DNA of 64,000 nucleotides from an uncultured Nitrososphaerales archaeon (GTDB taxonomy: Archaea; Thermoproteota; Nitrososphaeria; Nitrososphaerales; Nitrososphaeraceae), in the NCBI GenBank assembly GCA_963713605.1, contig CAVQMO010000010.1:128001-192000 (forward strand), given 5' to 3'. The translations under genes were made by a program, and so were the position numbers. Position 1 is the stretch's first letter, and each line of letters starts with the position of its first letter. Shown piece after piece: positions 5,729-18,744 of the stretch. The notes under the pieces were generated by a model. That model worked only from the letters and a program-made list of their open reading frames with translations, made no database searches and was not told where the DNA came from.

Positions 5729-7129
5729 ATGGATAATAATGGAATATATAGCGAGATCAAAAATTTTGCATTGGCGACCGATCTTTATCAAATAATAATG
5801 GCTGCAGCGTATTATTCAAGTCCCTATCATAGAAAAAGGAAAACTATAGGGATTTTTGAAATGTTTCTAAGGAAACTGCCGAAGAACAGATCTTTTATAG
5901 TAGTTGCAGGAGTTGAGCAAGTAGTACAGTATGTCTTGAATTTACGTTATGATGACAACCAAATTGCATACTTACAATCTTTAGAAGTGTTTAAGGATGT
6001 AAATAAGGGATTTTTTGTTTATCTGCGACGATTCAAGTTTAGCGGATCATTATGGTCGGTACCCGAAGGTACAGTATTATTTCCCAATGAACCAATCATG
6101 AGGATAGAAGCTCCGATCATTGAAGCACAGCTATTGGAAACTTGCATTTTATCGATAATTAATTTTCAGAGTTTGATTGCCACTAAAGCAGCTAGAATTG
6201 TATCAACAGCTAGCCACAAACCAATTGTAGAATTTGGCTCAAGAAGAGCACATGGACCACAAGCGGGCGTTCTTGCAGCTAGAGGGGCATTCATCGGTGG
6301 CTGTGTTGGAACTTCCAATACACTTGCTGGAAAGGCCTTTGGCATACCGGTATTTGGTACTATGGCTCATTCTTTTATTTTAAGTCATGAGAATGAACTT
6401 GATGCCCTTAGAGAATTCAACAATATGTTTCCGACTGGATTTCTACTTGTTGACACTTACGATACGTTGAACGCGGTCAATAGACTGCTAAGAGCAGGAA
6501 TTAGACCTTATGGCGTCCGACTTGATAGTGGAGATCTCTGCATGCTCAGTATAGAGACAAGAAGATTACTAGACGATGCAGGATGTAAAGACACAAAAAT
6601 TATGGTTAGCGGAGACCTAAACGAGCATTCCATTTCTAAACTCCTAGCGAATGGCGCTCCGATAGATTGTTTTGGAGTTGGCACGGAGCTGAGCACCTCC
6701 CGGGATAGTCCTACAATGAATGGTATATACAAATTGGTTGGAGTTAAGGTCCGCAATCCTGACAACAATAGTGGTAAATACGAAATATTGTACAAATCAA
6801 AGACTAGCGTGGACAAAGAAACATACCCAGGACCTAAGCAGGTAGCTAGATTCATTAAAGATAATGTTTTAGAAAAGGATTGCTTAATCTTAGAGAACGA
6901 AAAGCCCCCTGACAAATGTATTTTGTTACTAAAAAAGTATCTGGAGGATGGTAACAAAATAATTGAAATGCCGTCGATATCTGAGATACAGAATTACTCT
7001 TCGAAACAACTAGAACTCCTTCCAACAGCCTTGAAATCCCTGGATGAAAAACCAGTTTTATTTCCTGTTGTGCTAAGCCAAATACTAGAGTCACTAGGTT
7101 ATCCACGTGATCCATCAACTTTCAGCTAA
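5729..7129 (+). CDS. pncB: Nicotinate phosphoribosyltransferase
   Basis: TDLYQ, EFGSRRAH, GTMAHSF (phospho-His), LVDTYD, GVRLDSGD, FGVGT, YKLV. Confidence 0.95.
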   Translation: MDNNGIYSEIKNFALATDLYQIIMAAAYYSSPYHRKRKTIGIFEMFLRKLPKNRSFIVVAGVEQVVQYVLNLRYDDNQIAYLQSLEVFKDVNKGFFVYLRRFKFSGSLWSVPEGTVLFPNEPIMRIEAPIIEAQLLETCILSIINFQSLIATKAARIVSTASHKPIVEFGSRRAHGPQAGVLAARGAFIGGCVGTSNTLAGKAFGIPVFGTMAHSFILSHENELDALREFNNMFPTGFLLVDTYDTLNAVNRLLRAGIRPYGVRLDSGDLCMLSIETRRLLDDAGCKDTKIMVSGDLNEHSISKLLANGAPIDCFGVGTELSTSRDSPTMNGIYKLVGVKVRNPDNNSGKYEILYKSKTSVDKETYPGPKQVARFIKDNVLEKDCLILENEKPPDKCILLLKKYLEDGNKIIEMPSISEIQNYSSKQLELLPTALKSLDEKPVLFPVVLSQILESLGYPRDPSTFS

Positions 7130-7487
7130 TTACATAAGCTTATGTAATGTAGAAAAAAACTATGTGTAGTGACCTTGATTTATTTCTCGATCGGTCTTAA
7201 TAGACGACTAAAGTACACATAGATACAACCTTTTTATTTCTGCTAATGGAGTTATTGCAACCTCAGGTACCATTTTCATCTATCATGACTTTCAGATTCT
7301 TATTATATCTTTCTTGCAAACTAGGGAGTAGATAGTTTTGATAGAAGAGAGATTCTACCCCCAATAACGAATATGAAAAACTTCCCTATGTATGCTAAAT
7401 ATAAGGAGCGGATTTGAGTGAGTGAGAGGAATTTCGGCACTCTCAAGAGACACAGGAACTAGAGGAGGGTAAACTTCTACTGGAACC

Positions 7488-7694
7488 TATATATGTAGTA
7501 GGACTAAACCGTCAATGTCATTAGGATAACAAAAAGATTGACCTTCTTTCGGGTACTTTCACTCCAACAATTGCGTCCTTACAACTTGGGCAAATCTGAT
7601 AGTAAACGTATATTTGTTTATTGTCCTTGTTCAGGCCTATTGGGAAGTTCCACATTTGAGGGTGAAAACTGATCTTACAACTTGGACATTTCAT
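7488..7694 (-). CDS. Small zinc-ribbon protein (CPSC...CPSC); probable frameshift near 7552
   Basis: MKCPSCKISFHPQ...YQICPSCKDAIVGVKVP. Removing one C after GTAC extends it to KEGQSFCYPNDIDGLVLLHI*. End coordinate is inferred. Confidence 0.55.
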
Positions 7695-7776
7695 GGAAGT
7701 ACATATAGCAAATCGCATATATAATATATGAAGCGCCTATAGTGGCAGTGGCAGTTTAGTTAATAACCAGACAGAA

Positions 7777-8296
7777 GATAGACGACCATTATAGAATAGT
7801 GCCAATAGATATATGGCCGTCTACCCTGGATTTTGCTATCGGTTTGTATTATCGTTATTCAAAACTAAAAGTCTTTTGGTATAATAAAAAGGTAGGACGA
7901 CCATACTTATTGAGACAAGAACATGGCCGCGCTATCTTCGGATATTGCTTTCAGACGGTATAGAATATAATGACCATTCGGGGTAAAAGTTTTTTGGTAT
8001 AATAAAAAGGTAGAACAACCGAGGTTGACCCGATATCTGATTGCCTACCCTTTGCGCGACATATTATAAAAAACAGACAATTAGAAAAGGTAGCGCGCGG
8101 CCGAGAATTTGTCCAATTGAAAGGAAAGGACTGGCCGCCACTACCAAACCATGCCGATTTACGATATGCTCACATTTCATATTATATTATTATATAATAG
8201 GCATTATGGAACTTAGTTACTTGGTCTTCTAAATTTGGAAAATCTGATAAAGTAGACGACCAATAACCGACATGTCAGACGCATTGATCGCCTACT
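7777..8296 (-). ncRNA. Array of five related hairpins (GGTAG..GGCC / GGTC..CTACC arms, variable 18-30 nt loops); candidate small-RNA array
   Basis: Inverted arms at 7777-7825, 7889-7938, 8009-8049, 8089-8145, 8251-8296. Most plus-strand mismatches are A.C (G.U on minus). A 30-nt direct repeat (29/30) lies at 7866-7895 and 7984-8013. Confidence 0.6.
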
Positions 8297-8365
8297 GCCA
8301 GTTGGTTCTTTAAGAGTGATTTAAAGGCCTCAACTGCCCGACAGAGGTATTAAACTACATAATAT

Positions 8366-8406
8366 AAAAAAGATCTAAGGAACCGACCTGCAAAAAAGGT
8401 GGGTTC
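8366..8406 (-). terminator. Hairpin plus T-tract downstream of the secreted-protein gene
   Basis: GAACCGACCT (8380-8389) / AGGTGGGTTC (8397-8406), then a T6 run on the minus strand, just past the stop at 8425. Confidence 0.5.
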
Positions 8407-8424
8407 ATCTTGACTGTCACCCAA

Positions 8425-9382
8425 CTATTGGGTGACCAACTGTGCTGGAAGGTTCTCGACTACATAATGCAGATCAGCAGTTTCTCCGGGAGCAACATCA
8501 CAAAGGAATACGAATCCCCCAGTATTGGCGTCTGCTACCTGGCAACCTTGACCTTGGTTAGTAGGGAATACACGCGCAGTTACATAAGTGGTATCTCTAC
8601 CACTGACGGCTGGTTCTGATATTTGAAAGGATACATCCACTCCATCAGGATCCCATCCTACTGCATGTCCGACAGCATCGTCAAACACAGTGACTCTCTT
8701 CATAAAACTCTTGGCCGGTTTTGTAGAGGTTATACTCTTATCTGCAATAGCATTAACGCCTACCTGTTTCATTGTATAAGCCGTAGATTGTGTAGGACCA
8801 TCAATAATAGTATTAGCGGCATTTCTAGTTGTAACTGTTACCTTGTAGTTTGCACTGGGATTTAATGGATTATTGATATTGGAGAATTCTAGCCTTATCT
8901 TTGTACTAGCATGTATATTCACGGCATTAGTAACAGTATATGTGAGCGTTTGACCAGATTTGCTAACTGTACCTACACCTATTCCCTGGGCTTCATTGAA
9001 ACTAGCACTGGAAGGTACCGTGGTGCCTGCTGGAAGAGTTACCTGTATTTTTTTTATCGCACCTGAAGATGCTGTTAGAAATACAACATCATAGAAGGAA
9101 TTAGTATTAACAATGTTATTGGTAGGTCTTGCTGTAACAGAAGAAAGTGCTCCTTGGGTGGTGAAATCCCCCTCTTTTCCATCTTGACCTATTGTTGAAG
9201 GTGCAGACGGAATTGTATTAATGGTAGGAAGGGGTTCTACTGAAGCCGTCGTTGCCAATGCTGAATTAATAATGATGATAGGCGAAGATACAGATCATAA
9301 GTGCAGTAATCAATAGTAACCCAAGTCCTGGCCCTGAGTTAGCCAGTTGCTCGGACAATTTTCCTGACGAGAACAGTTTCAT
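8425..9382 (-). CDS. Secreted/cell-surface beta-rich protein; frameshift in signal-peptide region near 9295
   Basis: MKLFSSG...GLGLLLITALM joins SVSSPIIIINSALATT to the 277-aa Thr/Ser/Asn-rich ORF. Confidence 0.65.
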
Positions 9383-17970: not shown

Positions 17971-18744
17971 ATACCATCAAATCTACAGGAATTCTCTTCG
18001 GACTTCCGTATAGCTAGTAGTTTTTCTAGCTTTTGGCTACACACTCAGATTACGGTCCATTACCTTTAACTTTTTTATAGTTTATCGCAAATTATACGGC
18101 AACGAATATACAGAACGAGAGTTCCAGAAGGTATGCGACCAATACTTCTGTCGTGACTAAATCTTCAAGGTTGTCTTACCATTGTTTAAGGATTGATAGA
18201 TAACCTTGTTCCGGAATATCTTAAGCGTTGCGAGGGAACATGACATATAATACATTTACATGAGAATGTCAGTTGTCAACTTTTACAAGATTAAGTAGAA
18301 ATATACTAAACAGGCAGAGTTAAGTAAAAATATAATTGAAGTAGTCCAAGATAGGGATTTGGAAACCTATTCCCGGACCTGCACATATGTTAACCTATAG
18401 GTTATCCTTCCCTATCTTTCACTTTGAAATGCATGTTAGGTATCATATGATTATGAGAAGGGCGCCTACGGCTCTCTGCATTGACAACCAACCGTGGGCA
18501 CACCTTCTCTATCTGCTTTTATAGTATGTTGTATAAGCCGCCTAGCATCTCTGGCCTTAACGATTTCAAATATGTATGAATAATAATGAAGATACTTTAT
18601 ACTGCTTTTGCTTCAGGCTGATTGGATCGGACTTCATAAATACCCTCGATGATTCAAAAAAAGCATACCCATAGGACTCAACCGTTCAGCGATTGTAAAG
18701 AATCTTCATAGGGATAAATATGAAGTAAAGTAGATAGCAATAGT

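Follow-up and report, generated by a model that had tools for sequence, protein, structure and literature searches.

Hairpin arrays of a genus-restricted family in Nitrososphaeraceae that probably consists of small-RNA genes

We analysed a stretch of 64,000 nucleotides (the window) from an uncultured Nitrososphaerales archaeon of the family Nitrososphaeraceae (assembly GCA_963713605.1, contig CAVQMO010000010.1, positions 128,001 to 192,000), in which five hairpins with related arms, U1 to U5, occupy positions 7777-8296. An initial annotation made from the letters of the window had recognised this array but missed that about 20 such clusters exist, all of a dispersed family present throughout the genus. 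The results presented below establish an uncatalogued, genus-restricted family, probably of small-RNA genes. The reading that we prefer, with little more than even confidence, is that the units are independently transcribed small RNAs whose wobble-containing stem is bound by a single protein in trans, that they serve as decoys or scaffolds, and that they have been duplicated and reshuffled at their arms.

All five arm pairs proposed by the initial annotation were confirmed at their positions. The array lies in a gene-free stretch downstream of a nicotinate phosphoribosyltransferase gene, with a zinc-ribbon gene on one side and a gene of 277 amino acids (aa) on the other. When folded with 15-nt flanks, each hairpin was more stable on the minus than on the plus strand (U1, -23.2 versus -14.0 kcal/mol; U2, -18.5 versus -14.8; U3, -16.6 versus -8.3; U4, -32.8 versus -25.2; U5, -25.0 versus -14.4), and U1 and U5, which had been said to pair fully on the minus strand, indeed form 14 pairs each there, 2 of them G·U. 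The predicted minus RNAs of the five units gave folding z-scores of -2.4 to -5.4; the plus strands fold too, with z-scores of -0.7 to -4.0, the last being that of U4. The T-run that had been noted behind the stems of U2 to U5 is clear for U2 to U4 (4-5 T) but short for U5, and it is weak for U1. Four of the five units scored 31-35 with an arm profile that reached no more than 26.1 in two shuffled genomes; U4, which has longer arms, is a weaker family match (covariance model E 0.06). The array feature extends to about position 8375, a second hairpin (8297-8340) and a TATA-like element being located beyond U5. Parts of the array are also present on contigs from independent DNA runs, one run (X5) covering 7919-8108 and 8124-8281 with no differences, and no single contig spans all of it; because of this coverage the array is unlikely to be an assembly artefact.

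The structure, strand bias, distribution and mosaic arrays of the family were observed directly. From genomes and metagenomes 190 distinct units were collected, of which 107 remained after loop dereplication; GC-rich loci and one unpublished genome of the genus (G013) were left out of this set, GC-rich and phage loci being regarded as chance matches and dropped before counting (GC cut 45-46%; six more by name). The conserved hairpin, hairpin B, has a 12-bp stem with the minus-strand consensus GGUAG-G-CGRYC-A paired to U-GRYYG-U-[N]-CUACC. Pair 6 of the stem is G·U in 69 of the 107 dereplicated units, and 48 of the 107 have one extra base in the 3' arm. Double changes that keep a pair numbered 56 in this set, versus 30.2±3.7 after shuffling (0 of 1000 shuffles). 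Similarly, 94% of the cells in an alignment of 43 units were paired, versus 29-58% in slid controls, and this alignment contained 17 double changes versus 5.9. Pairing itself had not been selected for, because the two arms were scored independently. On the minus strand the 107 units contain 151 G·U versus 48 A·C; the seed patterns imposed arm asymmetry on the seed units, and units outside the seed have 92 G·U and 39 A·C. The orientation rule for the 190-unit set relied on arm asymmetry and partly on the A-run. When 185 units were oriented by arm asymmetry alone, the four bases following the stem on the minus strand were T in 86, 72, 66 and 63%.

An arm profile detected 21 clusters in the genome of the window (G000), at scores barely reached by two shuffled genomes. 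A covariance-model search, which the initial annotation had proposed as a check, was carried out with a model built from the 43 aligned units. In G000 it gave 32 matches at E≤0.5, corresponding to 29 distinct places, none of which is located on the largest, core-like contig of 1.16 Mb (C1). Matches were present in all 14 genomes of the genus, four of which (G001, G002, G003 and G010) were outside the training set; there were 2-64 per genome with duplicates on both strands counted, and the tally without the unpublished G013 is 13 of 13. Outside the genus, 140 genomes of the order, 20 of them members of the same family, gave no match (40 candidates scored per genome). An exact pattern was found in 10 of the 13 other genus genomes (9 of 12 without G013; reversed control, 0) and in 0 of 137 other genomes of the family, and the AT-rich matches among named genomes carry the titles Nitrososphaeraceae, Nitrososphaerales or Thermoproteota archaeon. 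The restriction to one genus holds among the genomes searched; other genera could hold arrays with a different stem. Two to six units were detected in 48 of 148 clusters, longer arrays being visible as well, and neighbouring units have the same orientation in 90 of 115 pairs, with a median spacing of 135 bp. The initial annotation had recognised no known family, and in agreement with this a scan with Rfam 15 gave no match in the window at the gathering threshold (best E 1.5 in 7000-8600) and none at E≤1 across 10 array loci. Nor is the family described in the literature searched, which included PMC12625717 but few subscription papers. One lone intergenic hairpin of a marine phage (L106:6001-6057; also L107, L186, L190 and L226) fits the arm pattern; having neither array nor promoter motif, it was taken as chance.

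The arrays are mosaics, in which one loop occurs with different linkers and one linker with different loops. In 56 of 175 and in 43 of 143 cases a shared segment ends where an arm ends, about five times the ∼6% expected; this excess is only suggestive, because the alignments traverse the conserved arms and the pairs are not independent. Exchanges occurred at both arms and also within linkers. A paralogous array on contig C12 is without U2 and part of U1, and many copies are decayed, for instance U5 on C12 and possibly U3 in the window. Five species retain one unit, with its promoter and both hairpins, at an orthologous site. Coding density around the clusters is 0.43, compared with 0.69 on C1.

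Many units are preceded by sequences resembling archaeal promoters. The motif TTTTATA-N-TAT-R-TT (type P2) is present upstream on the minus strand in 70 of 154 regions (∼45%). In 45 units picked on the TATA-proximal part only, so that the WW positions (W, A or T) were not selected for, positions 18 and 19 counted from the first T of TTTA are W in 91% and 87% (flanks, 22% and 58%), and position 29 from the box is G in 56%. According to Brenneis et al. (PMC2151090), TATA boxes stand at -27/-28 and WW at -10/-11, and termination takes place at a penta-U, often behind a stem-loop; the spacing of TATA and WW in the units and their stem-loop with U-run fit the promoter and terminator layout described there. 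Genes of G000 itself show a peak of TT[AT]TA[AT] 29-33 nt ahead of the ATG (786 genes), TATAAAA being rare. In the C12 paralogue of U3, which is without hairpin A, hairpin B begins at position 29 from the box; the maximum of pairing probability is at position 30, where a second hairpin, hairpin A, often opens. Hairpin A folds with a mean z-score of -1.56 on minus versus -0.99 on plus, and the outer stem in one subfamily reaches 90% pairing on minus and 79% on plus, 17 of 26 having G·U. A second type of element (P1), an A-rich stretch ahead of TTTTAG, gave a strict match in 8 of 156 upstream regions. A sigma-70 scan (6 sites versus 2.7 expected) was set aside as not applicable to archaea. Together, covariation, promoter-like element and T-run support the proposal of the initial annotation that a single-stranded structure on the minus strand is under selection in repeated small transcription units.

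According to the model that we favour, a repeat of ∼110-240 bp would consist, in minus-strand order, of an archaeal promoter (TATA, with WW at -11/-10), an optional hairpin A, hairpin B (GGUAGGCGRYC ... GRYYGU[N]CUACC; loop of 14-45 nt; G·U pair or bulged U fixed) and a U-run terminator. Many units would have their own promoter, and the resulting RNAs would be ∼50-130 nt long. The stem would constitute a sequence-specific handle for one host protein, and because that protein would be encoded elsewhere, the RNAs would act in trans as decoys or scaffolds. Copies would arise by duplication of DNA where genes are sparse, and recombination within the shared arms would swap loops and linkers. A more far-reaching form of this model is unlikely in our judgement: that the family is the RNA half of a new archaeal RNA-guided or decoy system, in which one trans-acting protein would be loaded, via the wobble stem, with dozens of separately transcribed RNAs, and loop specificity would be diversified by recombination at the 11-13-bp arms, without spacer acquisition of the CRISPR type.

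Several observations weigh against independently transcribed, protein-bound RNAs. Transcription, start and end sites, the protein partner and the decoy role are what we infer, and the searches described below found no partner protein. Among the sequencing runs listed no RNA run containing the array came up, a result without bearing on expression. Half of the upstream regions (78 of 156) fit neither promoter pattern, a profile of 25 tRNA promoters showed no excess on either strand (5 of 145 and 5 of 146), and WW is not enriched in 34 native promoters. In no more than 14 of 42 units does the first confident pair of hairpin A fall at positions 27-29; this hairpin covaries weakly (11 of 500) and yielded no consensus with RNAalifold, and whole linkers are without strand preference (26 of 47). 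A near-palindromic TATA element is located 12-36 nt ahead of the plus arm in 22 of 185 units. As to hairpin B, kinship among copies inflates the shuffle tests of covariation, the strand of G000 units deduced from folding energy and from the T-run agreed in 14 cases, disagreed in 12 and was tied in 10, and G·T pairing also suits single-stranded DNA.

The possibility that the units are orphan guide RNAs resembling TIGR, whose effector would be encoded in trans and whose targets would lie in viruses or mobile elements, is quite unlikely. It would account for a conserved stem with a variable, swappable loop in arrays, and in plus orientation loops start with CCA in 73 of 111 cases and end with UG in 72 of 111. 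TIGR units are likewise tandem stem-loops with variable interior and linkers (PMC12045711; bioRxiv 10.64898/2026.09.09.750476), and CCA and UG adjoin the stem on one strand of our units too. TIGR units, however, have two spacers of 8-12 nt between C and D boxes, with few conserved stem bases, and lie beside a tas gene encoding a Nop domain (Faure et al. 2025, PMC12045711), whereas in the present family the whole stem is conserved, spacer length varies, no tas gene was found, and the arrays are spread over ∼20 chromosomal sites with many units seemingly having their own promoter. Names beginning with Nitrososph- are absent from the main texts of both TIGR sources; the supplement of the preprint could list such loci. 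Requiring both spacers to be 8-12 nt, a TIGR parse fitted 8 of 111 loops (2.0 in shuffles, 4 on the other strand) without a sharp length peak; a CCA-spacer-UG..YCR-spacer-UG parse fitted 14 of 111 versus 3.5 in shuffles, but also 11 of 111 on the other strand, and lengths did not settle at 9. Loop lengths span 8-44 nt. The loops, which had been described as unrelated, have words such as TGCCA, CCAGA and TGAAG in common (plus reading; z 8-12); this agrees better with shared descent or a second protein contact than with guides independent of each other. The guide-like role suggested for them found no support in target searches. Contiguous host targets reached 13.5 versus 13.0 nt in shuffles; an excess of split targets (50 versus 21) was dropped since the count was unmasked and redundant, and after masking and counting per unit the values were 14.0 versus 12.9 (best case, 2 of 30 shuffles). 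The longest antisense matches of loops were equal to shuffles for rRNA (7.93 versus 8.04) and tRNA (7.43 versus 7.35), and a role antisense to start codons, open reading frames (ORFs), rRNA or tRNA was rejected on the same ground. Viral contigs yielded five single-hairpin matches (GC-rich or one marine phage hairpin) and no arrays, and two further patterns gave 0 and 0. A Nop-domain search of G000 returned only the housekeeping Nop5; the completeness of this genome is 87%, and the models could miss a distant Tas. None of 71 neighbour proteins scanned matched Nop, and a profile derived from IS110 found nothing in G000 (best E 0.1). On the parse, the sole Nop5, the absence of an IS110-profile match and the lack of split targets, a plus-strand TIGR reading was dropped. 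The Nop5 match itself (G000:C1:928362-929040) is split across two frames, which reflects a frameshift or an assembly error.

Sites for recombination or transposition of single-stranded DNA, at which a tyrosine recombinase or an HUH enzyme would recognise the folded minus strand through its extrahelical T and shuffle linkers, loops and small cargo genes in the manner of attC or REP/BIME, are a doubtful alternative, although same-orientation arrays, a fixed bulged T or G·T, a variable loop, mosaic ends at the arms, 42 tyrosine-recombinase-like ORFs in G000 and small cysteine-rich ORF families often beside arrays would suit it. Integron attC sites are two-site hairpins with R and L boxes containing GTTRRRY and a linked tyrosine recombinase. 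Hairpins in the same orientation, an extrahelical T, a variable terminal loop and exchangeable modules are features of both, but the 12-bp stem of the family is about half as long, its consensus is without R/L boxes or GTTRRRY, no integrase is adjacent and most modules are without an ORF. Integrases are no nearer to clusters than to random positions (p 0.19, 0.49), exchanges took place at both arms and within linkers too, and TATA-WW spacing and T-run are not explained by such sites. REP/SMAG and BIME elements are multicopy extragenic palindromes with GTAG, occurring singly or in mosaic clusters with linker families (PMC3184786). The REP/REPIN alternative of the initial annotation nevertheless fails on the position of this tetranucleotide, which stands ahead of the palindrome in REP/SMAG (PMC3184786) and here pairs with CTAC as stem pairs 2-5; in addition, the family is archaeal, has tens rather than hundreds of copies, carries promoter-like elements inside the repeat and is linked to no Y1/RAYT gene. 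Y1 (PF01797) was found in 1 of 14 genus genomes, beside a TnpB-like ORF in a locus without a unit, and IS110 was above the cut-off in 2 of 14, no unit being present in four IS110 loci scanned. Y1, TnpB-like and IS110 genes adjoin on one contig of G011 (L254:357-1883, L258:1378-2646), the genome with most units (64), none of them in that locus. The co-occurring Y1/HUH, recombinase or nuclease gene envisaged earlier was not found linked to arrays. A selfish or near-neutral repeat is rather unlikely but deserves most attention beside the reading we favour: a promoter-hairpin-terminator module would spread by duplication and gene conversion within plastic genome regions, its RNA would be a by-product, and the stem would survive as a terminator or through homogenisation. 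Its avoidance of the core-like contig (0 of 29 places) together with the low coding density, its copy number of 2 to 64 with many decayed copies, and the failure to find either target or partner fit this; compensatory changes, fixed wobble and constant TATA-WW spacing would require selection or very efficient conversion, and the orthologous unit kept in five species and the lack of a linked mobilising enzyme speak against it too. Finally, transcription of the plus strand from the near-palindromic TATAAAA, giving an RNA that starts from the left arm and has a conserved unpaired A, is highly improbable. On plus, 22 of 185 units (4 on minus) do have TATA[AT]A[AT] 12-36 nt ahead of the arm, an interval that is AT-rich, but both hairpins would then have an A·C mismatch where the minus strand has G·U, a U-run is lacking on plus (11 of 107), the distance from box to arm varies from 23 to 57 nt, and TATAAAA is rare ahead of native genes.

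Other enzymes and known RNAs were considered as well. No recurrent gene family lies beside the arrays: among 732 neighbour ORFs, a set that takes in G013 loci, the largest clusters extend over 8 loci and are similar to hydrolases and sensor kinases. In G000, TnpB and Y1 queries had no tblastn match, Argonaute/Piwi gave nothing above the cut-off and there is no TROVE (Ro60) gene; reverse transcriptase (PF00078) is present in 0 of 14 genus genomes. The family differs from retron or other reverse-transcribed templates, and from IS110 bridge RNAs in that units are not inside IS110 elements. Y RNAs bound by Ro60 are similar in having a conserved stem with a bulged pyrimidine, a pyrimidine-rich loop and a 3' U-tail, and are unlike the family in view of the missing TROVE-domain gene in G000 and the lack of an Rfam match. 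Sib/Rdl antitoxins and CsrB/RsmZ and Qrr decoys, multicopy small RNAs of bacteria that have promoter and terminator of their own, are also self-contained RNA genes with a common scaffold and variable parts, some in tandem; however, the family shows neither an antisense toxin ORF nor a repeated short protein-binding loop, has far more copies, is archaeal and is without Rfam match. Logos of flank plus loop showed no ACA or box consensus of C/D or H/ACA guide RNAs. Coding was not supported: 1 of 21 clusters lies inside an ORF and no frame is conserved, and small peptides from the ATG frequent at the plus loop start (48 of 107) were rejected (frames 19/17/12; lengths 3-64 aa). Downstream genes are on the same strand in 48 cases versus 42 opposite, and units are not leaders, because the downstream gene has no preferred strand.

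The features of the window are listed in Table 1. The U3 unit may be damaged, because its predicted start falls within the arm.

Table 1. Family features in the window; E values refer to the covariance model.
Feature	Position	Strand	Remarks
U1 hairpin B, 14 bp with 2 G·U, weak U-run	7777..7825	-	E 7e-10
P1-type promoter-like element of U1 (A-rich stretch, then TTTTAG)	7865..7879	-	putative start ~7840
U2 hairpin B and 5-T run	7886..7938	-	E 2e-7
P1-type promoter-like element of U2 (repeat D2)	7983..7997	-	putative start ~7959
U3 hairpin B, bulged U, and 5-T run	8004..8049	-	E 2.5e-8
P2-type TATA element of U3	8056..8072	-	7 nt shorter than C12 paralogue
U4 hairpin B, long arms, and 4-T run	8085..8145	-	E 0.06; contig C12 has an identical copy
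U4 leader: small 5' hairpin 8147-8171, TATA-like stretch 8190-8199	8147..8199	-	putative start ~8171
U5 hairpin B, 14+ bp with 2 G·U, short U-run	8248..8296	-	E 3e-8
U5 hairpin A, variable 5' hairpin, AATCACTC-loop subfamily	8297..8340	-	predicted start 8339-8340
P2 promoter-like element of U5: TATA 8363-8370, WW 8350-8351	8350..8375	-	
Solo family unit with own P2 element, elsewhere in the window	18128..18187	+	E 1e-4

Next to the array, positions 7180-7350 (minus strand) contain the 3' remnant of a gene. In four relatives this gene goes on, located downstream of the nicotinate phosphoribosyltransferase gene; in the window it is shortened by a 38-nt deletion and stops near 7350. This conserved stretch was rejected as a family member, being a decayed gene, and its deletion and break indicate that the zinc-ribbon gene and the array lie at a rearrangement point. 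The zinc-ribbon gene (7487-7694, minus strand) is a copy of a 68-aa family that is intact in relatives and frameshifted here near 7550; the gene has its own TATA ∼30 nt ahead of the ATG and belongs to no Pfam family. For two small proteins of the neighbourhood the ESM Atlas returned no family. Around other arrays, a small Cys/His-rich ORF family (L077:1702-1953 and paralogues), often broken, is sometimes located beside units, most copies having no unit within 900 bp; 6 of the 7 other genomes of the genus contain 1-21 matches each, 73 further genomes contain none, and it has no Pfam or Atlas family. A second small family with CxxC (L087:1125-1343 and paralogues) occurs at 11 places in G000 and has arrays upstream in many metagenome loci. 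The 42 tyrosine-recombinase-like ORFs of G000 comprise two paralogue families and are in many cases fragmentary. Related ORF fragments near units (L037:4470-6040, L041:1575-2006), one with a weak DEAD-type ATPase match, may, at a guess, be terminase-like remnants of an integrated element.

The literature searched says little about non-coding RNAs in ammonia-oxidising archaea. A family with up to ∼60 matches per genome in one genus of Nitrososphaeraceae, with a covarying stem and predictable ends, is directly testable. If a protein does read the stem and the loops carry specificity, this would be a new RNA-programmed system; if not, the family would be an archaeal counterpart of REP/BIME-type mosaic repeats, equipped with promoters of its own, and a usable marker of the genus.
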